A DNA stretch of 64,000 nt from an uncultured Gammaproteobacteria bacterium (GCA_964345045.1 CAYFPM010000002.1:219481-283480), one strand, 5' to 3'. Counted from the stretch's first letter, positions 35,801 through 63,941 are shown. A program made the numbers and translations. The notes: generated from the sequence alone by a model not told the origin.

Positions 35801-36312
35801 GTCTATTAAATATGTTTGCCATTTCAATTTCTCTGGCTCTGCAATACGGTGTACCACTAGAGAGACTAGTAGACAAATTCACCTTTACCAGATTCGAACC
35901 GGCTGGCATGACAGACCATCCAAATATCAAAGTTTGTACTTCTGTAGTTGATTGGATTTTCCGAATACTTGGTATGGAATACTTGGGTAGAACAGATTTT
36001 GTGCAAGTGCAACCAAAAGGTATCCAAAAGAATAGATTTGAACAAATGGCACGACTAGCCGAGACTACCACCAAACAAGAGAGTATGTCTCTAGAAGTGA
36101 CTAGCCCCACTACAGTAGAAGTAACAACTACCGAAGTTCAAGAAACTTTGATTGAGATAGAAGAGGATTCGAGCCAGCAAGACGCTATGGGAGCCGCACT
36201 TTCGGAAATGGATGGAGATGCTCCGGCTTGCCCTACTTGTGGTCATATTACTGTTCGCAATGGATCTTGTTACAAGTGTTTGAACTGTGGAGATAGTCTT
36301 GGTTGTAGTTAG
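32806..36312 (+). CDS. nrdJ: class II (adenosylcobalamin-dependent) ribonucleotide reductase, long form
   Basis: 1168 aa. Active-site region GSNPCSEYMFLDDTACNLASLN. C-terminal Zn-ribbon CPTCGHITVRNGSCYKCLNCG. Confidence 0.85.
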   Translation: MGPVDSKFIQGLHLGQTEDEQSSFTYNPDGLKFKRVFSEEGKSPFDMVEYEKRSSVIREPDGTVVFEMIDIEIPKDWSQVATDIMAQKYFRKAGVPQYNPDGTPKLDANGSPMLGPETSAKQTVHRLVGTWRYWGEKYAYFASAKDAEIFYDELVVMLLRQMAAPNSPQWFNTGLQWAYGITGPAQGHHYVDPDTGNLTRSTDAYTHPQPHACFIQSVRDDLVNEGGIMDLWTREARIFKYGSGTGSNFSGIRGKGEPLSGGGTSSGVMSFLRIGDRAAGAIKSGGTTRRAAKMVILDIDHPDVETFVNWKVEEEKKVAALIAAGYPSDYEGEAYDTVSGQNSNNSVRVQHKFMHAVENDGSWNLTWRTDGTTAKTVKARELWENIAFAAWACADPGLQYDGTINDWHTCPQSGRINGSNPCSEYMFLDDTACNLASLNIAKFFNIDKQEFLVDNFKHGARLWTTVLEISVLMAQFPSKEIAQMSYEFRTLGLGYANIGSVLMTSGIPYESEEAYAFTGCVSAIMTGESYRTSAEIAKAMGPFPKFAINREDMLRVMRNHRRAAFNAPDSEYEKCTIKPVGINPEYAPAYMLSAARESWNEALEWGEKHGYRNAQTTLLAPTGTIGLLMDCATTGVEPDFALVKFKKLAGGGYFKIVNQAVPAALKNLDYSEAEITDIIDYMKGKANITDAPHINAESLKQKGFTDEDLEKLNGALGSAFEIQFAFNVWTLGEDCMKRVGIEAAQYNDPNFNMLTALGFTDEQIDEANDYVCGTMTIEGAPHLKDEHYKIFDCANKCGKKGKRYIEYMGHIKMMAAAQPFLSGAISKTINMPNEVTVEDVKHAYNESWKLGLKAVALYRDGCKLSQPLSTSSKKKDEDEEKVEAKAVETTATASQEMQEAGLAGDVSEISQAIAEATKILHQHIPDSHAMPTYGRDGSVTDHRLYLHGEKRKLPAKRSGITISTTIGNQKVWLRTGEYPDGRLAEIFIDMYKEGAGFQSLLNMFAISISLALQYGVPLERLVDKFTFTRFEPAGMTDHPNIKVCTSVVDWIFRILGMEYLGRTDFVQVQPKGIQKNRFEQMARLAETTTKQESMSLEVTSPTTVEVTTTEVQETLIEIEEDSSQQDAMGAALSEMDGDAPACPTCGHITVRNGSCYKCLNCGDSLGCS

Positions 36313-36391
36313 TAAGTTGTAAGTTTTAAGAAGTAATATAAAAGTATTGATGGGGGAAATGACGGATAATCGATAATCAAAAGTTATAAAA

Positions 36392-36427
36392 ACCGGCGTT
36401 ATATAGCGTCGGTTTTTGGTTTTTTTG
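36392..36427 (+). terminator. rho-independent terminator
   Basis: accggcg-ttatatag-cgtcggt followed by TTTTTGGTTTTTTT. Confidence 0.6.
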
Positions 36428-36468
36428 GCTTTGTTTAGGTAAATTTTAGATATTATTATAAGTGGTAC

Positions 36469-36497
36469 TTGACAAGTGTACTAAAAAGGTGTATATA
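36469..36497 (+). promoter_or_regulatory. consensus sigma70 promoter of the GC-rich lipoprotein gene
   Basis: TTGACA, 17-nt spacer, TATATA. Confidence 0.55.
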
Positions 36498-36575
36498 TGA
36501 TAGCAGTGGAAACTCGCCCAAAAGAAGCATCTCCAGCTACGGCGGTGTAAAAGAGGCGAGTATTAGGAGTGAACG

Positions 36576-37235
36576 TTGAAAATTATCAGTAAGTCTTGCC
36601 TTTTGGCAGGCATTTGGATTCTCCTTCTGGCCACCGCGTGTGGCGGGGAAACTTCCTCCGTATATGTCGACGTGGGGGGGGATACGGTGGCCATCGGCAC
36701 CTCGAGTGCTGCGGTGACCCAAACCCTATGGTGCGGGCAGACCGGATCATCCGCTCAACCGGGGTTCGAGTTCGCCGTGAGGTGGATGGATCAGACCGGT
36801 CGACAGACGGGGGTGAGCTCCGCCTACCCAGTCTGCCTGGTCAACGGGCAGATGAGTACCAGCTTCGACCTCGGTTGGAGTGGCACTAGCCCCTACGCGA
36901 ACACCGTGACGGTCTATCGCCCTGCTCGGCAAGTCCGAAGTGTACGAGTGAGCTGTCAGGGGCACAACCGAAGCAAGACCAGTCCCAGTGGGTGGGTGCT
37001 CGTTTCTGTCGGGGATACCCCTGTCGCCGTGCAGTTCTTCGACAGCGCGGGGCGGCTCATGGGGAAGGATATGTTCAAGATCCCGCTGGATCGTTCATGG
37101 GTGGATCTGGACAAGATGTCCCCGATCGCTTCCTACGAGACCGTGCGCATCGACCACGATCCACAATTCCTCGTGGCCAATTCACCGCGCTACGACCACG
37201 TGAGCTGCTCACTCCAGGTCACGGATAAGAAGTGA
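36576..37235 (+). CDS. hypothetical lipoprotein (GC-rich islet D)
   Basis: 219 aa. TTG start 7 nt after AGGAG. Signal peptide plus lipobox-like LLLATAC-G. About 60% GC. No catalytic motifs. Confidence 0.55.
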   Translation: MKIISKSCLLAGIWILLLATACGGETSSVYVDVGGDTVAIGTSSAAVTQTLWCGQTGSSAQPGFEFAVRWMDQTGRQTGVSSAYPVCLVNGQMSTSFDLGWSGTSPYANTVTVYRPARQVRSVRVSCQGHNRSKTSPSGWVLVSVGDTPVAVQFFDSAGRLMGKDMFKIPLDRSWVDLDKMSPIASYETVRIDHDPQFLVANSPRYDHVSCSLQVTDKK

Positions 37236-43862: not shown

Positions 43863-44649
43863 ATGACGTTTAGAGACGTCTACAAGGAGAATCTCATGTT
43901 TGGTTTTGGTAACATTTTCGCCCGTGGCCTGATGGCTCTCGGCAACCTGATTCGGTTTCGGCATCCGTTCTGCTACCAGGGCAATGTGGCCGTGATCGTG
44001 GGGACAGTGCCGGCACGCAACTACGATTCCGCTCTGGGCTGCCCAATTTCAGTTCGGGTAAACGGCGAGGAACATCATCTGGCTGTCGCTATGTACGGCG
44101 ACTATCCAGACAATCCGCGAGAAGGGTTAGAAGCCTACCAAGAAGCTCTTTTCGGGATTTGCCTGACCCCAAGAGCCCAATTATGGGGTTGGCCCCCGAT
44201 ACCCCATTCGCATGTTTCTGGAGTCCCAGACCGGACTCTACTACGTGCCAGAGATCCTGGTTTGGGGTACTGGGGCGGACATGGCCTTTTGTAATGGCCT
44301 GGATATGGGATTCGTGCAGAGGCATATTGCTGAGCGAGAAAACCAACCATGGATCGATTTTCTGGCAGAAACCTCCGGGTATACGTCTGTCCCGACCAGC
44401 AAGATCGTCGAGCTCATGGGGGCGGGCGCAGCTCTCCGGCAGGTGCTCACGCCCAACCCTTTCACATTCTTGGACGTGAAAGAGGGCGGTGAGATCGTTC
44501 GCATTACGGGGCGTAGCACAGCTCACATGGTCGGCGCCTGGGAAGCGCCGAAGGGCAAGAGGTTCGATGGGCGTGACACGCCCTACGACGGCTTCACGCC
44601 GCGCTTCCGCGTGTTGCTCGAGCTGTACGGCCAGATCGACTACCCGTAA
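43863..44649 (+). pseudogene. GC-rich hypothetical gene split across two overlapping reading frames (frameshift or two overlapping ORFs; islet E)
   Basis: ORF 43863-44294 (AAGGTG RBS) and ORF 44167/44212-44649 in a different frame overlap by 80-130 nt. Both are about 58% GC. A C5 homopolymer at 44193-44197 lies in the overlap. Confidence 0.35.
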
Positions 44650-44904
44650 GCTCTTTAGGCCCAAAGGAGACTATAAAACCCTCGCACGGGTGACAAACTT
44701 TTTCTACAAGTTTTCGTCACACCAGTGTCGAGGGCTTCTTCATTTATGAGCTTAATTTGTACTGTCATTCCGAGGAGCCGTCCGTCTGAGCCTGCCCCGA
44801 GCGAAGTCGAAGGGGGAAAATCTATAATACTTTCAAATTGAGATTGCGACGGTCACTGTCGCTCCCTCCCACCAATTTGGCGGGTAGGCGCAGTGACAGG
44901 AGTT

Positions 44905-45879
44905 CTATTTCTTGTCGTGTTCGTCTTCTATTTCTCCAACCAATTCTTCTAGCACATCTTCCAAAGTGATTACTCCCAACGTTTTTCCTTTGTTGTCTTC
45001 TACTACGGCCATGTGAATGTTTTCTCTTTGAAATTCTCTTAATAAATCATCTAAATTTTTCTTTTTGTTTACTCGCAAAATTGGACGAATAATATTTTCT
45101 ATTCTGGCTTTTTCTTTATTATGTTGCAGGGCAATTAGCACATCGCGAGAATGTACAAAACCAATAATATGATCCAAGTTTTTGTGAACAACTGGGAATC
45201 TGGTATGAGTAGATTTGGCAATTAGTTCGGCTGCTTCGGCTACAGATAGACGCTCTGGTATGGAAACAATTTTAGATTTATTGGTCATTATGTCTCTAGC
45301 TTGCAGATCATTTAGAGCAAAAAGCCTCTCGATCATTATTCTCTCGTCGTATTCAATAGTTCCTTGTTTTACCCCGGCGTGTGCCAAAGCTTTTAATTCG
45401 TCTTCACTAACTTTTTCTTCTTTTTGTTTGCCGGCAAATACATGAGTAACCCATTCTAAAACGATAATAAAAGGAAGCAAAATCCATTGCAAAAGTCGTA
45501 TAACCGGTGCTGCCCAAATAGCAAATTTTTTGTTGTGACTGCTGGCGTAAGATTTTGGGACAATTTCTCCAAAGATCAAAACCAAGATAGTCATAACCCC
45601 GGTAGTCACCCCCAAGACTGCCGAAGCAAAAAATTCACTAGCCACAATAGTAGCTAGGGAAGCCGAGGCAATATTTACAATATTGTTGCCAATAAGAATC
45701 GTGATCAAAAGACGTCTGGGATTGTCTTTTAATTTTTTTACTAATTTTGCTCTAGGCAAATCTTTTTTTATCATGGTCGAGACTTTGGCTGGGGTGAGCG
45801 AAATAAAAGCCACCTCGGCCGAAGAGAAAAAGCCAGATAAAAAAAGTAGAACAAGTAATATAATTAAATTTGTCAGCAT
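44905..45879 (-). CDS. CNNM/HlyC/CorC family transporter (DUF21 plus CBS pair)
   Basis: 324 aa. N-terminal DUF21 TM domain (GEIVPKSYA) and two CBS domains. Confidence 0.8.
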   Translation of the reverse strand: MLTNLIILLVLLFLSGFFSSAEVAFISLTPAKVSTMIKKDLPRAKLVKKLKDNPRRLLITILIGNNIVNIASASLATIVASEFFASAVLGVTTGVMTILVLIFGEIVPKSYASSHNKKFAIWAAPVIRLLQWILLPFIIVLEWVTHVFAGKQKEEKVSEDELKALAHAGVKQGTIEYDERIMIERLFALNDLQARDIMTNKSKIVSIPERLSVAEAAELIAKSTHTRFPVVHKNLDHIIGFVHSRDVLIALQHNKEKARIENIIRPILRVNKKKNLDDLLREFQRENIHMAVVEDNKGKTLGVITLEDVLEELVGEIEDEHDKK

Positions 45880-46016
45880 AGTTTTATTACCTTTAGTTTA
45901 GCTTTTTTTTGTAAATTTAACAAATTTTGTAAAGGTAATAATATTGACAAAGTGATTTTTTTTTGCTTATATAATGGCAGTTTTTGATAACTTACAACCC
46001 CACAAAGGAGGACATT

Positions 46017-46970
46017 GTGGATTCTTTGAAAAAAATTTCGTGGATGCTCGGTGGTGGATCTGTGGACTGGATCATGCGCTGCCTCGCGCTCGTAGGGGGC
46101 ATCGTCGTCGCAGTACTAGGGGTAATTCCCAATGCCTTGCGTCGATGGAAGGCCATGATGCCCTCGGTCAAAGGTAAGAACGTCTTGATCGTCGGTGTCC
46201 AGAGTGGCAACATCGGCTTCTACATCGCCCAGTTCTGCGTGAGCCTTGGGGCACATGTCACCATCGCGTCACGGAACAAGAGTGGTCAGCTATCATCGCT
46301 AGCAGAGGTGATCGGAGAGGTTGGCACAGGCACGTGCCAGTATCTCACCATCGACGTAGCTAGCCGGGAAGACGACATCGTCCGTTCGTTGGAGGATCAG
46401 GCGGCATTCGACATCATCGTGTGGAGCGTCGCCTTCGTCAAGGATCTGGATATCATCTCCGCGGATGAAGAGGCTCTTCGAGAGAATGCGAGATCGTGTT
46501 TCGATATCAACGCTTCTGCGTACGCACATCTCATGCGCTCATTGATTCGTGCCGGCAAGCTTGGCAACGATGCACGGGTGCTCGTGATGAGCAGCCTGGC
46601 GGAGCGACTTGGGACGCGATCTGGCGCAGCGTACGCTGCTTCCAAAGCTGGTCTGCGTCGTCTGGCCGAGAGTCTGGAGATGTGGGCCAAGAAGAATGGT
46701 CACTCCTGGCGAACGACGTACGTCCTCTGCGGCGCGGTGAACACCGGGTTGTGGAATGACGACATGGATGTCGGCAAGAATGCACGACAGAAGATGGCAG
46801 ACCCGGAGAAGGTTGCCAAAGCAGCCGTGGATGGCCTCATGCGGGGCAAGCGTGAGATCATCTTCGAGCCACCGATGTGGCTCATGCTCGTCTGGCGATC
46901 TTTAGGACTTGTCGATGAAGACACTGTTTATGGGGAAGGAGAAAAAGCGATCGAAGCGATTCGAAAGTGA
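46017..46970 (+). CDS. short-chain dehydrogenase/reductase (SDR) family oxidoreductase with an N-terminal TM helix (GC-rich islet F)
   Basis: GTG start 5 nt after AAAGGAGG. Gly-rich NAD(P) motif KNVLIVGVQSGNIGFYIA and catalytic SSL...YAASKAG (S, YxxxK). About 60% GC. Confidence 0.6.
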   Translation: MDSLKKISWMLGGGSVDWIMRCLALVGGIVVAVLGVIPNALRRWKAMMPSVKGKNVLIVGVQSGNIGFYIAQFCVSLGAHVTIASRNKSGQLSSLAEVIGEVGTGTCQYLTIDVASREDDIVRSLEDQAAFDIIVWSVAFVKDLDIISADEEALRENARSCFDINASAYAHLMRSLIRAGKLGNDARVLVMSSLAERLGTRSGAAYAASKAGLRRLAESLEMWAKKNGHSWRTTYVLCGAVNTGLWNDDMDVGKNARQKMADPEKVAKAAVDGLMRGKREIIFEPPMWLMLVWRSLGLVDEDTVYGEGEKAIEAIRK

Positions 46971-47054
46971 GGACAACTAACCCCGCGCGCTGGCAGAATA
47001 TGTCGGCGCGCGGGGGGAGGTTCAATTTTTATTGAAGTATATAAAAATAGTGTA

Positions 47055-60167: not shown

Positions 60168-60410
60168 ATGGATACCATAGTAAAAGCAACAACAAAAGGT
60201 CAAATTACCATCCCGGCAAAATGGAGAAATCGTTTTAATACAGATCGTTTTTTAATAAGTGCAAAAGATACTCATTTGGAAATTAAACCCATAGATTTGG
60301 ACAAGATAGATCAAGATAAGGAATACACAGTTTTTGATGCTATTCGCGATAACAAAGGAAAAGGAATAAAAGCAAAAGATTTGGCAAAGATCCTGAAAAA
60401 GAAGATTTAG
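60168..60410 (+). CDS. AbrB/MazE/SpoVT-type antitoxin
   Basis: 80 aa. N-terminal swapped-hairpin motif TKGQITIPAKWRNRF. Confidence 0.6.
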   Translation: MDTIVKATTKGQITIPAKWRNRFNTDRFLISAKDTHLEIKPIDLDKIDQDKEYTVFDAIRDNKGKGIKAKDLAKILKKKI

Positions 60411-60414
60411 TTTT

Positions 60415-60648
60415 ATGGACAAGATATAAAAATTATTTAGAAAAATAACCAAAAAACAGAGACAATTACTTTTGTCTATAATAGAAAAATTATTAAATAA
60501 AGAAACAAAGGGTTTGAATATAAAAAAAGTAAAAGGTACAGATTTTTATAGACTGAGATCTGGTAGATTTAGAATAATTTTTCACAAAGAGAATAAAGAT
60601 GTGATTATTGACTCAATCAAATTAAGAGATGAGAAAACATATAAGTAG
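60415..60648 (+). pseudogene. RelE/ParE-family toxin gene disrupted by a premature TAA at codon 5
   Basis: Frame 60415 reads ATG GAC AAG ATA TAA, then continues in-frame as KLFRKITKKQRQLLLSIIEKLLNKETKGLNIKKVKGTDFYRLRSGRFRIIFHKENKDVIIDSIKLRDEKTYK (RelE/ParE signature YRLR.G.FRII). The only in-frame restart is a TTG at 60472. Confidence 0.5.
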
Positions 60649-60779: not shown

Positions 60780-60872
60780 TGGCGGAGAGAGAGGGATTCG
60801 AACCCTCGGTTCGCTAAATTGCGAACACCGCTTTTCGAGAGCGGCACCTTAAACCAGCTCAGACATCTCTCC
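60780..60872 (-). tRNA. tRNA-Ser (anticodon CGA), CCA encoded
   Basis: GGAGAGA acceptor; anticodon loop CTCGAAA; long variable arm GTTCGC-AATTTA-GCGAAC; T-arm GGTTCGAATCC; 3' TCTCTCCGCCA. Confidence 0.85.
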
Positions 60873-60959: not shown

Positions 60960-61298
60960 TCACTCTGTTTTGAGGAGTATGCCTGGCCAAGCTTCGCGAA
61001 TCGGCCGCTCTGGAGGATATTTGATGGGGATCTTTTTTCCGAACCACAGTCCAGGTCTTTCTTCTCTCCAAATTACTTTGGAGGTAAGTCTTTGCCTTTG
61101 GGTGAATTCTGTCCATCGTCCTTCACGCATGATTTGTGTAAAGACTTTGATAGTCTCGTCCACTTGTCTGCTCAAAGCCTCTGCCTGTCTTTTGGCAAGG
61201 GCTCTGACGACCTTCCGCTCTACATAAGAATATATGATAATTAGCAGAGGAATACACCAAAGAAAGGTTGTGAACCACCAATTAAAATCCTTGTCCAT
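60960..61298 (-). CDS. small hypothetical membrane protein (GC-moderate; islet G)
   Basis: 112 aa. AAGGAGG RBS, N-terminal TM helix (WWFTTFLWCIPLLIIIYSYV), basic C-terminal region. Confidence 0.5.
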   Translation of the reverse strand: MDKDFNWWFTTFLWCIPLLIIIYSYVERKVVRALAKRQAEALSRQVDETIKVFTQIMREGRWTEFTQRQRLTSKVIWREERPGLWFGKKIPIKYPPERPIREAWPGILLKTE

Positions 61299-61360
61299 AC
61301 TGGACCTCCTTACTTTCTACCCTACTAAATCAAAACAATTTTGGCAATAATGTTGCAAAA

Positions 61361-61390
61361 ACAAAAAACTCTCATATGAGAGTTTTTTGT
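61361..61390. terminator. bidirectional terminator
   Basis: A-run, palindrome aactctcatatgagagtt, TTTTTTGTTT. Confidence 0.6.
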
Positions 61391-61522
61391 TTACTTTTGG
61401 ACTGCAGTGCAAAAGAATGGGGACACGCTATTATTTTTGGCCGGCGTGTGAGCGGCTAAGAAAGTTGGTAGGTTGCCGAGTCTATTAGTTATTGACTATT
61501 TTTAGCAGGTGCCAGCTTTCTC

Positions 61523-62539
61523 CTAAAGAGCTAGACGATTTTTGATAAGCTGCCAATTTTTGGCAATCATATCGTCACCTTGGCGGGGAATGTCTCGGAT
61601 TTCCAGCATCAGCTTGCCGTCTCTCACACGCAAACGCTCCCACCACCAGACAGAACGTAGGAACAGATCCATGTCTCTCGGTGGCTCGGTTGCCACAGAG
61701 AGAGCTGGTATGCGGCGGGCTGGTTGGCTGTTTTTTCGATCCATAAAGACTTTTTTACGTAGCAACTCACGCCAGTATTTGTCAAAACAGGTTGGGGTTG
61801 CCCCGTAGCGATTCGTTTCGTAGCCTGCTTTTGACTTGTCAATGTAGCTACGCCAGATTTGTTCCGATTCTGTGGCAGGCCAGCCGTTTGCATTTCGGAG
61901 TGGTTGGAGCACTTGTACGAAATCAAAAGCCTCTTCGATGCTTGTAACATCTATGGTGTACTGGACACAGGCAATGTGCCCCAAGCTTTGGAGGATTTCA
62001 CCATCAAGTTCCAGCCAGATCTGGTCACGTTTGTCTGGCATCAGCAGGGTATTGGCATCGGTCAAACCATCATAATGCTTGGTCAAGGCCTTGGCTCCGA
62101 CATTGGTTCCGGCTTGCTTGAGTTGTCCAAGCACCTGATAAGTTTCTTTGAGTAGTCCCTTATACTCCTCAATTCTTGCCGGAGGAGTATTGAGTTCCAA
62201 GTTGGACCAGCCCAGTTCATACATAAGTGAGAACTGACCATTGCCCACCTCTACAACTACTCCGTTGCTTTCTTCTTGAATCTTCCAACCAGGAAGTTGG
62301 CTCATAGCTCTCATCATGGCCTGAGACTGATCGAATGAGATTGGCTCTGCCGAATCAGCTTTTACGAACAGAGTCTCCACCTCTACGCCGAACATCCGGG
62401 AACTGGGAGTACAAGTTTTTGCACGGGTGAAGTATTGTGCTAGATTGGAAGCGTCTGTTTGCTCGTCTAGGCCGTTTTCGCGAGCAAAGCGATCATACTC
62501 ATCCCAACCATACCCGGGCATCCATCTATTCCACGCCAT
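61523..62539 (-). CDS. carboxylate-amine ligase, glutamate-cysteine ligase family 2 (GCS2/YbdK-like; GC-rich islet G)
   Basis: 338 aa. N-terminal FGVEVETLFV (YbdK-type GxExE motif) and the GCS2 fold pattern. About 55% GC. AAAGGAG RBS. Confidence 0.6.
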   Translation of the reverse strand: MAWNRWMPGYGWDEYDRFARENGLDEQTDASNLAQYFTRAKTCTPSSRMFGVEVETLFVKADSAEPISFDQSQAMMRAMSQLPGWKIQEESNGVVVEVGNGQFSLMYELGWSNLELNTPPARIEEYKGLLKETYQVLGQLKQAGTNVGAKALTKHYDGLTDANTLLMPDKRDQIWLELDGEILQSLGHIACVQYTIDVTSIEEAFDFVQVLQPLRNANGWPATESEQIWRSYIDKSKAGYETNRYGATPTCFDKYWRELLRKKVFMDRKNSQPARRIPALSVATEPPRDMDLFLRSVWWWERLRVRDGKLMLEIRDIPRQGDDMIAKNWQLIKNRLAL

Positions 62540-62585
62540 TTTTTTCTCCTTTACCTGTTCTGTTTAGAACAGGTCACTTTCTTTA

Positions 62586-63326
62586 TTACGACAAAGAAAG
62601 TGCTTGTTCTAAATTAATTTTTTTAAGTTTGTAAGCTAGTATGTTTTCGTAATCATAACTACCAATAAATATTGGAGTGAAAGTTTTATTTTTTATTTTT
62701 ACTTCCACAAACTCCTTTAGTTCAATCGATATTGGGCATTCTGATTTTTTTAGTGGTTCATACATTAAATAGATTTTTTTCTGTTTAAGCCTTTCTCTCC
62801 AGCCAATTTTTTCTCTTTCTAAATAATTTTTCAAAAAATCCGTTAGGATTAGTTCTAATTTATTTTTTATGCGGGGATTATTTTTTTCACCAGATTCTAT
62901 TTCTATTCCGCAAGAAAAAAATTCACTAAGAGAACCTTGTTGTTCTTTTGTAATACTTGGCCAGAGCACTATTCTAGAAATTTTGAACATGGAAGCAAGC
63001 TTAAAATTTTCTAGAGTTGGATTGGTTATAATAATGAATATGCCAGTATTCTTTATTGAGCCATGCAAATCAATAGTGTATCGATAGTTTTCACTTTTTT
63101 TAATAAGTTCGGCTGCTCGCCTTTTTTCGTAGATCGAACTGTCCAAATCTCCAGGGGCACTACGGTTTAGATCAGCCTCAAATTCACGTGTTCCTTTGCT
63201 TAGAGCTGGTGGATTGCCAATAACAGAGTCGAAATCAAATTCGCTTTGATCAAGTTTTTGGAGTACCTCTACCCCGATTGTTTCATCACCGTGGGTGGCA
63301 CCTATAAATAATAAATCTTTCTTCAT
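62586..63326 (-). CDS. succinylglutamate desuccinylase/aspartoacylase (AstE/AspA) family zinc hydrolase
   Basis: 246 aa. N-terminal zinc-binding motif GATHGDETIG (HxxE). AT-rich, host-like composition. 46 bp upstream of the GCS2 ligase, with a hairpin between them. Confidence 0.6.
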   Translation of the reverse strand: MKKDLLFIGATHGDETIGVEVLQKLDQSEFDFDSVIGNPPALSKGTREFEADLNRSAPGDLDSSIYEKRRAAELIKKSENYRYTIDLHGSIKNTGIFIIITNPTLENFKLASMFKISRIVLWPSITKEQQGSLSEFFSCGIEIESGEKNNPRIKNKLELILTDFLKNYLEREKIGWRERLKQKKIYLMYEPLKKSECPISIELKEFVEVKIKNKTFTPIFIGSYDYENILAYKLKKINLEQALSLS

Positions 63327-63447
63327 ATATGTAATATTAATTTTGTGGCGCGCCCTGGTTCTGCCCCAGGAACTCTCACTTCACTTGTGAGAATGATAGC
63401 TGTTTTCACCACCGCACCTTTTATAAATTAAGAATTATGAATTTTTG

Positions 63448-63480
63448 TTAATAAATAAAAAATCGCTTGATATAGCGATT
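63448..63480 (-). terminator. rho-independent terminator for the TrpR-like gene
   Basis: aatcgct-tgatat-agcgatt, followed on the minus strand by TTTTTATTTAT. Confidence 0.45.
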
Positions 63481-63644
63481 TGTGAGACCTCAAAATAAAA
63501 TCTGGCTAGAGATTTACTCGAGGTCTTTTTTATGATGTGATTTTTTAAAAGTTGGTTGGTTCATATTTTGTATTAACGTATTACTACATTAATACAAGAG
63601 TTTGAAAATGTCAAGATTGTTTGTGTGGATAAACAAAAAAAGCG

Positions 63645-63941
63645 TTACTTACGCTTTTTTTCATTTTTTCTATAGAGGGCTGCTTGGTAACCACCTTCGC
63701 CGTGTTTGAGCCAGTGGGCTACTCGGCTTACGGTTGCTGTAGAGAGTCCGGTTTTTTCGGCTATTTCTCTATAGGGAGTACCTTTGTTTATCATCTCGGC
63801 AGCTTGCCAACGAGTAGAAATTTCGTCTAGTTCGTCTAGGGTCATTAGGTCTCGCAAGAAGTTAATCATTTCGGCTTCTTCTGGCAAGGACAAAAAGGCT
63901 TTGGCCAAGCGTTTAAGTTTTGGAGTCTTCCAAGTTTTCAT
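63645..63941 (-). CDS. TrpR-like (YerC/YecD family) DNA-binding protein
   Basis: 98 aa. LRDLMTLDELDEISTRWQAAEMINKGTPYREIAEKTGLSTATVSRVAHWLKHG matches the YerC/YecD TrpR-like HTH pattern. Confidence 0.7.
   Translation of the reverse strand: MKTWKTPKLKRLAKAFLSLPEEAEMINFLRDLMTLDELDEISTRWQAAEMINKGTPYREIAEKTGLSTATVSRVAHWLKHGEGGYQAALYRKNEKKRK

Follow-up and report, generated by a model that had tools for sequence, protein, structure and literature searches.

A conserved Patescibacteria operon with a predicted carboxylate-amine ligase and an aminoacylase-like hydrolase behind candidate histidine sensors

We have analysed a 64-kb window (the whole stretch of DNA under study, GCA_964345045.1, CAYFPM010000002.1:219481-283480; average GC 38.6%), near one end of which three open reading frames (ORFs) lie on the minus strand: 62586–63326 (246 aa), 61523–62539 (338 aa) and 60960–61298 (112 aa). 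An earlier note on this DNA had read them as genes for a zinc hydrolase of the AstE/AspA type, a carboxylate-amine ligase and a small membrane protein. All three ORFs are found at the places it gave, and the spacer between the hydrolase and ligase genes is 46 bp, as it had said. The interval that it covered, 60960–63326, leaves out the regulatory half of the unit, 63327–63941. Taken as a whole, the unit appears as an operon that, judging from gene content and regulatory DNA, is conserved in Patescibacteria, and in which an acylating enzyme (a ligase resembling glutamate-cysteine ligase, GCL, or a GNAT) and a deacylating enzyme (AstE-like, gamma-glutamyl-cyclotransferase-like or GATase_4-like) stand behind putative histidine sensors. 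For the comparative analyses, 66 related loci were collected through ligase homologues and six more through the AstE-like protein; 54 ligase loci were left after the removal of duplicates. The loci are numbered L001, L002 and so on, and L067–L072 are the set reached through the AstE-like protein.

The hydrolase (62586–63326, minus strand) starts MKKDLLFIGATHGDETIG and matches the Pfam family AstE_AspA_cat (PF24827) at E 1e-16, with 61.5 bits against a cut-off of 25. Its zinc ligands H12, E15 and H88 and the pair N54-R55 are invariant across 44 relatives, R47 is found in at least 90% of them, and E142/E144 are conserved. These catalytic residues align to those of aminoacylase-3 and ASPA; the aspartoacylase counterparts we take to be H21/E24/H116 for the zinc ligands, R63 for the transition-state arginine and N70-R71 for the carboxylate clamp. 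When the structure model (pLDDT 96.7) was searched with Foldseek, aspartoacylase and aminoacylase-3 came out best (E about 1e-13 to 1e-14, TM 0.70–0.74), followed by AstE, DoeB/EutE and CphZ; the structures matched include 4mri (E 4.5e-14, TM 0.72), 3nfz, 1yw4 and 6twm. The reading as an AstE/AspA-type zinc hydrolase is thus supported by both sequence and fold. At the same time, the protein lies below the NCBIfam equivalog cut-offs, with 69.6 versus 180 bits for aspartoacylase (NF002601) and 26.8 versus 305.65 bits for AstE (TIGR03242), and it belongs to a Patescibacteria-specific subfamily of at least 167 clusters. With aspartoacylase, aminoacylase-3, AstE and DoeB this subfamily has in common the catalytic domain, the zinc ligands, the transition-state arginine, the N-R clamp and the carboxypeptidase-like fold, but it is about 60–80 residues shorter, and it is linked to HisR, His leaders and the ligase or a GNAT rather than to arginine, ectoine or N-acetylaspartate genes. 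Judging from the modelled fold and active site, an aminoacylase-like N-acyl-L-amino-acid amidohydrolase belonging to this subfamily is the most fitting description of the enzyme, and since the N-R pair that binds an alpha-carboxylate is kept, an N-acyl-alpha-amino-acid would fit as its substrate. We also observed that the AstE-like genes of the window, L002, L004, L006 and L012 have no recognisable Shine-Dalgarno sequence.

The ligase (61523–62539, minus strand), whose gene has the Shine-Dalgarno sequence AAGGAG at 62546–62551, contains the stretch MFGVEVETLF and had been regarded as a YbdK/GCS2-type, ATP-grasp-like enzyme. In Pfam, it matches no family at E ≤ 0.1, GCS2 (PF04107) included, and the NCBIfam model PRK13517 (glutamate-cysteine ligase subfamily) gives only E 0.023, with 13.9 bits against a cut-off of 332. 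A word-index search of 5.8 billion proteins returned only 22 relatives, none of them with a precomputed Pfam domain, and an exhaustive search with the profile of these 22 relatives against 1.84 billion cluster representatives (clusters at 50% identity) gave 134 matches. In the weak tail of these matches (E 3e-7 to 9e-4), all nine proteins tested are Pfam GCS2 proteins, and hhalign of the ligase family profile against one of them gives a probability of 95.5% and E 1.4e-8. Plant glutamate-cysteine ligase is also reached by a PDB profile search (E 0.017), and in that alignment GVEVE and YELGW..LE of the ligase fall on the metal-binding motifs GtEhE and lEpGgqFEL of GCL; E115 is conserved in at least 90% of the family, while the C-terminal E-x-R motif is invariant, as are the residues E313, R315 and R319.

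The predicted structure points in the same direction. With the AlphaFold model of the ligase (pLDDT 90.8), the best Foldseek match is plant GCL (2gwc, E 8e-12, TM 0.65–0.69), next come YbdK, GshA/GshF and glutamine synthetases, and the top 50 matches all belong to these groups, with no ATP-grasp structure among them. That is, the family assignment of the earlier note holds for the hydrolase at the family level and for the ligase at the superfamily level, where profile, hhalign and fold agree, whereas a direct GCS2 match is missing and the ATP-grasp label has to be given up in favour of a fold like that of GCL and glutamine synthetase. The family shares its fold and the motifs G-x-E-x-E and E-x-G-x-x-F-E-L with plant-type and family-2 GCLs (Brassica juncea GCL, 2GWC; E. 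coli YbdK, 1R8G; mycobacterial EgtA), but it is shorter (about 305–340 aa), has invariant motifs of its own (PDKRDEIWLELDG, W..Y...S.A.YE..RYG and F.RSVWW..RLR), is confined to Patescibacteria, and is apparently His-regulated and paired with a cleaving enzyme. The named genomes that carry it belong to Moraniibacteriota, Uhrbacteria, Kaiserbacteria and Saccharimonadia, in addition to one short contig binned as Gammaproteobacteria. Based on these models, the protein is a predicted carboxylate-amine ligase and represents a distinct, rare family of the GCL/glutamine-synthetase superfamily that current models miss. Conserved antisense ORFs inside the ligase gene were also considered and judged to be artefacts of a conserved, GC-rich gene.

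The pairing of the two genes is found well beyond the window. The AstE-like gene adjoins the ligase gene, before or after it, in 20 of the 54 non-redundant loci. Of the 39 loci that have at least 500 bp of upstream sequence, 23 show a TrpR-family (HisR-like) gene immediately ahead of the ligase block. All three genes stand together in the window and in L001, L002, L004, L006 and L012, while their order is swapped in L011, L017, L021/22 and L030. Where the AstE-like gene is absent, another gene often takes its place 0–80 bp after the ligase: in 17 loci this encodes a gamma-glutamyl-cyclotransferase-like (GGCT-like) protein, and in five loci an Ntn (N-terminal nucleophile) hydrolase similar to class-II glutamine amidotransferases (GATase_4, starting MCR...). 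The GGCT-like proteins are ~150 aa long and have invariant YGSL.N and RE.G motifs; 12 of 15 members match Pfam GGACT, four of 15 also touch Pfam ChaC, and the AIG2-like structure 2g0q is matched at 9e-6. The partners are mutually exclusive: among the 28 loci with full flanks, 11 have AstE, seven the GGCT-like gene, five GATase_4 and five none. The make-and-break pairing proposed in the earlier note has therefore been strengthened, because the ligase without AstE has another potentially bond-cleaving partner.

The acylating side can be exchanged as well, as the AstE-like enzyme is partnered either by this ligase or by a dedicated GNAT. In L069, L070/71 and L072, a HisR box is followed by a hisR-like gene with an HH, HHH or HHHH tail, a terminator, the AstE-like gene and a GNAT gene, with no ligase; L069 has an extra LDcluster4 gene ahead of the AstE-like gene. 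In L068, the order is hisS, tRNA-His(gtg), a TTGACA promoter, a leader (MRKAKCLYFNHHVLNRLRK, then a stop), a terminator, the AstE-like gene, the GNAT gene and an aromatic-type ammonia-lyase gene. The GNATs beside the AstE-like genes are orthologous, with 37–53% identity. When all ORFs within 3 kb were clustered, only the partners named above recurred, so that there is no third recurring enzyme family, no recurrent glutathione synthetase and no conserved gene for a small-protein substrate in these neighbourhoods; most units are strictly two enzymes.

Several single loci have additional genes in or beside the unit, which might encode accessory steps: an M20 peptidase (L004, 1881–3182), an N-formylglutamate amidohydrolase (L009, 1791–2579), an LDcluster4/SLOG-like protein (L069, 3413–3946) and a GHMP kinase (L006, 2895–4025). 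The row from hisS to the ammonia-lyase in L068 (2216–7181; aromatic-amino-acid/histidine lyase family, Lyase_aromatic) may be a fuller histidine module. The spacer between the hisR-like and AstE-like genes of L072 (3790–3900) contains a ~37-bp unit, ttgtcatctcgagcggagcctcttcactcacctcacc, in tandem repeat.

Known systems show a comparable pairing. In EgtA/EgtC (ergothioneine), PuuA/PuuD (putrescine), GCL/GGCT and BtrJ/BtrG, a gamma-glutamyl ligase is likewise combined with an amidohydrolase or cyclotransferase that removes the glutamyl group, and EgtC is of the class-II GATase type. In these pathways other enzymes act between ligation and cleavage, whereas the ligase loci have no recurring intervening enzyme and their apparent control signal is histidine. 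In the literature that we searched, we found no description of this ligase-hydrolase module.

The signal for histidine is given by two kinds of candidate regulatory elements, of which one is the repressor. The hisR-like gene (63645–63941, minus strand) encodes a 98-aa TrpR-family protein of the YerC/YecD (HisR) type, as indicated by matches to Pfam Trp_repressor (1.1e-22), to NCBIfam TIGR02531 yecD_yerC (70.2 bits against a cut-off of 42.2) and, among PDB structures, by 3frw and 3g1c (E. eligens HisR, 3.6e-15) as the best relatives. A terminator-like palindrome with an 11-bp stem, then a T-run, is located at the end of this gene (63635–63661, minus strand). It is followed by a candidate sigma-70-type promoter on the minus strand, a match to the consensus with TTGACA at 63609–63614, a 17-nt spacer and TAATGT at 63586–63591. 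Two overlapping 20-bp palindromic, operator-like sites of the type TGTATTA-N6-TAATACA (63569–63596) cover the -10 element and the transcription start. Each has one mismatch, and they are the sole sites with no more than one mismatch in the 64 kb. Boxes of the same type occur at the equivalent place in L002, L004, L006, L007, L009 and L012, and the arrangement of TTGACA and operator recurs in L004, L006 and L012.

These sites agree with what is known of the repressor family. YerC is HisR, and the HisR of Ruminococcus gnavus binds its 20-bp palindromic operator in vitro only with L-histidine (PMC9413887). The motif of the window resembles the proteobacterial HisR/TrpR box published in the same study, and the regulatory regions of the related loci contain the Firmicutes consensus given there, cacTTTAn6TAAAgtg, 1.31 times per kb, compared with 0.066 times per kb elsewhere, a 20-fold enrichment; there are often two such boxes, 18 bp apart, that overlap a TTGAC -35 element. 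Judging from sequence, the upstream gene is thus a YerC/HisR-family histidine repressor with matching candidate operators. The known targets of HisR are his biosynthesis genes and His transporters, and Patescibacteria were outside that study (PMC9413887). Compared with the HisR (YerC) regulon of Firmicutes and others, the regulator family, the 20-bp boxes (cacTTTAn6TAAAgtg in the majority of the relatives, a TGTAnTA-type box in the group of the window) and the frequent autoregulatory placement are alike, while the targets here are the ligase/hydrolase pair and many of the regulators carry a C-terminal tail of His codons.

The other element is a leader. A 16-codon ORF (MNQPTFKKSHHKKDLE, then a stop; 63514–63564, minus strand) contains tandem His codons at 63532–63537. 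Six nt past these codons begins a hairpin, GACCUCGAG...UUGAGGUC, with an inner hairpin (63485–63526, minus strand), and after it comes an intrinsic terminator (63450–63481, minus strand) in which AAAUCGCU-loop-AGCGAUUU (63460–63481) is followed by a U-run. The 151-nt leader folds at z = -8.2. The hairpin is kept in six loci with compensatory changes, and the terminator is conserved in L004, L006, L009 and L012. Across 46 regions upstream of the AstE/ligase block, small ORFs with HH or HHH were found in 20, compared with one of 46 for the reverse complement and a mean of 1.1 (maximum 6) for shuffled sequences; HH is the commonest doublet in these small ORFs.

The relatives fall into two classes, one with a free-standing His leader, to which the window belongs (class A), and the other with the His codons in the repressor's own C-terminal tail (class B). 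Where the repressor abuts the ligase, there is no free-standing leader, and ~19 of the 24 HisR-like proteins encoded next to it have a C-terminal tail with HH to HHHH, ~10 residues past a GGY motif, which is followed by 8–12 codons, the stop and a terminator of the type CCCTTCTC...GAGAAGGG. Examples are seen in L001 (5130–5205), L036, L037, L069 (3285–3320) and L072. In these loci, the 3' coding end of the repressor gene appears from its sequence to double as the attenuation leader of the downstream enzymes. Folding with a ribosome masking part of the RNA (L001, L027, L028 and L045) gave a terminator probability of 0–0.05 for a ribosome stalled at the His codons and of 0.73–0.96 for one at the stop. 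The pairing between coding tail and terminator 5' arm is stronger for cognate than for non-cognate combinations (-9.9 versus -8.3 kcal/mol; reached in 0 of 10000 permutations), and shuffled tails give -5.4. As modelled, class B follows the classical attenuation logic, in which starvation leads to read-through. These leaders are similar to the hisL and trpL attenuators in having a short ORF with tandem codons of the regulated amino acid, a hairpin and an intrinsic terminator, and for the class B relatives folding in silico reproduces the 1:2, 2:3 and 3:4 logic; they differ in having only 2–4 His codons and in that, at many loci, the repressor gene itself supplies the leader with its 3' end.

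The window has a further GC-rich element of ~72 nt (63347–63418, minus strand), located after the terminator of the leader and before the start codon of the AstE-like gene. It has a closing stem and three hairpins, each with a 7-nt loop, in a cloverleaf-like arrangement (the 134-nt region folds at z = -3.4), and its middle loop, AAGUGAA, is centred on GUG, the His anticodon. No Rfam or ARAGORN call covers it, and the corresponding spacers of L002, L004, L006 and L012 do not contain it; it may be due to chance.

RNA structure is also found between the two enzyme genes, where the earlier note had seen an intergenic hairpin of two overlapping arm pairs that could gate read-through. The structure is real, but there are two hairpins and they abut instead of overlapping (62553–62602, minus strand): one (62575–62602) spans the AstE stop codon, and the other (62553–62574) ends just before the ligase Shine-Dalgarno sequence. 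For the spacer with the end of the hydrolase gene, a folding energy of -25.4 kcal/mol was obtained (z = -5.5), which was reached by 0 of 200 shuffled sequences. Strong hairpins over the upstream stop codon recur in the equivalent spacers of L002, L004, L011, L012, L017 and L020 (z from -4.7 to -7.7) with unrelated sequences, and in loci with the ligase before AstE several spacer hairpins are terminator-like, with T-runs. The hairpins of the window have no U-run on the sense strand and thus do not make up a normal terminator; they may gate expression, and it is plausible that they set the ratio of the two enzymes, or uncouple their amounts. A repeated mobile element was rejected, both hairpins being unique in the window. 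An oddly spaced HisR box was rejected as well: the CACTTT/AAAGTG half-sites lie 8 bp farther apart than the published box would allow, and we have therefore treated the hairpins as RNA hairpins only.

The strong difference in composition between the two enzyme genes needs a separate consideration. The hydrolase gene has 32.5% GC (GC at third codon positions, GC3, 25%), the ligase gene 49.3% (GC3 51%) and the small ORF 44.8%. The contrast is thus real, though the ligase falls short of the earlier estimate of about 55%. The contrast had been explained by horizontal transfer of the ligase next to a native hydrolase, and some features of the window would agree with a recent event: its ligase has a GC3 of 0.50 against 0.27 for the other ORFs, an excess of +0.23 where +0.08 is typical of the family, the GC-rich block continues through the small orphan ORF to the tRNA-Ser gene, and the most closely related ligase, that of L004 with 50% identity, is GC-rich as well. 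However, the ligase has a higher GC3 than its AstE-like neighbour in 19 of 19 loci (means of 0.47 and 0.35), than the GGCT-like gene in 14 of 17, and than other ORFs in 36 of 44, in genomes of 17% to 72% GC3, and it tracks the GC3 of the host (slope 0.98, offset +0.08, r 0.85). In addition, the pairwise identities of the ligases correlate with those of the AstE-like proteins (Spearman 0.72, reached by 1 of 2000 Mantel permutations) and of the HisR-like proteins (0.43, reached by 0 of 2000), and synteny is conserved across phylum-level groups. From these comparisons, the ligase, AstE-like and HisR-like genes are apparently inherited together and the GC contrast is apparently a trait of the ligase family. 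Since the ligase is GC3-richer in all 19 loci and co-evolves with its partner, a one-off horizontal recruitment is not supported, and we regard a recent transfer as quite improbable. As the excess in the window is larger than is typical of the family, the ligase might nevertheless have been replaced, inside an existing operon, by a homologue from a GC-richer relative (xenologous replacement). A marked local difference in GC, as this case suggests, can be a lasting feature of a gene family and need not point to recent transfer. Elsewhere in the window, the blocks 36001–37000, 44001–45000 and 46001–47000 reach 49–56% GC, which may reflect the same gene-specific excess or foreign DNA.

Downstream of the ligase, the unit seems to end. 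A 15-bp palindromic, terminator-like hairpin (61359–61392, strand not assigned) closes the operon, and behind it, 224 bp from the ligase, lies the small 112-aa ORF (60960–61298, minus strand), with a ribosome-binding site of its own (AAGGAGG). The ORF does have a single hydrophobic N-terminal segment, in keeping with the description as a small membrane protein, but it has no homologue in any of the 66 related loci and no Pfam or PHROGs family, and on this comparison it is not a member of the conserved unit. Further on are a tRNA-Ser(cga) gene (60780–60872) and, just beyond it, a small AT-rich gene pair, 60168–60410 (+) and 60472–60648 (+), with weak matches to a MazE/AbrB-like antitoxin (E 3e-4) and a ParE-like toxin (E 0.012), possibly a toxin-antitoxin pair. 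An Rfam scan of the non-coding parts of the operon (gathering and E-value thresholds) gave nothing except the tRNA-Ser and chance-level matches. PHROGs has no match to the ligase either, and nothing in these sequence comparisons points to a phage origin. The four proteins of the unit region in the window are all singleton clusters, and when the exact ligase sequence was looked up on contigs, nothing came back.

Based on the above analyses, we infer that the operon would be expressed when histidine or charged tRNA-His is low, and we propose that it is a module, induced by histidine starvation, in which an N-acyl (gamma-glutamyl) amino acid is made and broken; this compound would probably be a conjugate of histidine. 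We assign this reading a probability of about 0.5. When histidine becomes scarce, the HisR-like repressor, without histidine as its co-repressor, would leave the operator as characterised HisR does, ribosomes would stall at the His codons and relieve termination, and transcription would be switched on. At the expense of ATP, the ligase would then link the alpha-amino group of an amino acid to a carboxylate, for which the gamma-carboxyl of glutamate is the likeliest candidate, and the partner would cleave the same bond, giving glutamate and the amino acid with the AstE-like enzyme, or 5-oxoproline and the amino acid with the GGCT-like enzyme. A gamma-glutamyl product is favoured because two of the three alternative partners come from families acting on gamma-glutamyl amides and because the nearest relatives of the ligase activate the gamma-carboxyl of glutamate; an alpha-amino acid as the amine is favoured because the AstE-like enzyme has the carboxylate clamp. 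This amino acid would most likely be histidine, and the resulting N-acyl-histidine pool (gamma-glutamyl-histidine, or N-acetyl-histidine in the GNAT variant) could capture, buffer or salvage histidine where an external supply is needed. The hairpins between the two genes would probably uncouple the amounts of the two enzymes. Two other schemes, a histidine trap that drives uptake and a histidine ammonia-lyase run in reverse by the pull of acylation, were both rejected on mass balance, as the steady-state level of free histidine cannot be increased by a cycle of making and breaking.

On the other hand, several points weigh against the proposed module. The evidence consists of genes, folds, motifs and regulatory DNA, from which activity, ligand and transcript are all predicted. 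A maker and a breaker of one bond that are co-induced bring no net gain at steady state, so that the purpose of the co-induction could be a storage or buffer pool, a salvage route in which a compound is protected, modified and deprotected with the middle step encoded elsewhere, or something different. As the structure that the ligase matches best is that of a genuine glutamate-cysteine ligase, the amine could be cysteine rather than histidine. In the class A leader of the window, the terminator probability stays at ~0.82 in all three modelled ribosome states, and the search for an antiterminator (ribosome masking at the His codons or the stop, a':3 pairings) gave only 5–6 AU-rich pairs and no convincing structure; the sign of regulation of this leader is therefore taken from its relatives. 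It also has only two His codons, compared with seven in enterobacterial hisL. Finally, 11 of 39 loci show no His signal under a rule of ATG and HH, although on inspection a leader is present in five of these 11 (with a single His or a split H-W-H in four of them, and in L046 with HH after the start codon GTG), and the AstE-like context of L067 has no His signal.

Among the alternatives, the salvage route just mentioned is the most serious, though we consider it unlikely. According to it, a damaged, modified or D-form histidine-like compound would be N-acylated, converted elsewhere and deacylated to L-histidine. Such chemistry has precedents: N-acetylation and deacetylation are used in the salvage of S-(2-succino)cysteine and S-alkylcysteine in B. 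subtilis, and there is also a route through an N-succinyl-amino-acid racemase. It would account for the joint induction of the two opposing enzymes when a single amino acid runs short. Also in its favour, both the acylating enzyme (ligase or GNAT) and the deacylating one are interchangeable, and extra genes occur in the unit at times (the M20 peptidase of L004, LDcluster4 of L069, Lyase_aromatic of L068 and the GHMP kinase of L006). However, no third enzyme family recurs within 3 kb, and most units are strictly of two enzymes. A gamma-glutamylcysteine thiol system, in which the ligase is a divergent GCL, the GGCT/ChaC-like or AstE-like partner degrades gamma-glutamylcysteine, and the His signals are incidental or reflect general amino-acid supply, is in our view improbable. 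The best fold and sequence matches of the ligase to plant-type GCL, the ChaC hits of the GGCT-like proteins and the known pairing of GCL with gamma-glutamyl cyclotransferase in glutathione turnover would all fit it, yet the regulation is specific to histidine (HisR family, HisR box, His codons only, and hisS/tRNA-His beside the AstE-GNAT variant), a GNAT would be unable to make gamma-glutamylcysteine, no glutathione synthetase recurs nearby, and the ligase family stays below the Pfam GCS2 threshold.

The starvation signal itself could also have another cause. If a histidine analogue or an inhibitor of histidyl-tRNA synthetase lowered the charged tRNA-His, ribosome stalling at His codons would be just the sensor expected, and N-acylation, a common detoxification route for amino-acid analogues, could inactivate the compound. 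This leaves no role for the nearly obligatory deacylating partner, and repression by histidine of the HisR type fits supply control better, so that detoxification of an antimetabolite seems highly improbable. Still harder to credit is the tagging of peptides or proteins in the manner of PafA/Dop or RimK, with the ligase attaching an amino acid or peptide to a carboxylate of a protein (or vice versa) and the partner taking it off again. Iyer et al. reportedly found in 2009 that ligase-peptidase pairs are common in such systems, and the Pup ligase and depupylase belong to the same carboxylate-amine ligase superfamily (PMC2588565). But the neighbourhoods contain no conserved gene for a small-protein substrate, the partners are of small-molecule types (aminoacylase-like and GGCT-like), and the AstE-like enzyme keeps the pair that binds a free alpha-carboxylate.

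Beyond the make-and-break module proposed here, we tentatively suggest that the cassette might serve a hitherto undescribed histidine-economy pathway of Patescibacteria, in which starvation would lead the ligase or GNAT to acylate histidine, a precursor or an analogue, interchangeable hydrolases or cyclotransferases would release it again, and the tail of HisR would act as the attenuation leader. If this is true, the enzyme family, the metabolite cycle and the regulatory architecture would all be new, and all found in one cassette. The novelty lies in enzyme families and subfamilies within known superfamilies, and in two known regulatory mechanisms in a new arrangement; the placement of attenuation codons in the tail of a repressor gene is an unusual regulatory design.

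Patescibacteria (the candidate phyla radiation, CPR), tiny symbiotic bacteria with a minimal metabolism, account for a large part of bacterial diversity and are largely uncultured. Most of them are unable to make amino acids, and how they acquire amino acids from hosts is an open question. Considering this, the cassette is among the few cases in which the regulatory DNA, with a HisR-type operator and His-codon attenuation before uncharacterised enzymes, would name the nutrient concerned. It thus offers a testable hypothesis, the turnover of gamma-glutamyl- or N-acetyl-histidine, for two uncharacterised protein families, one of which has no Pfam model.

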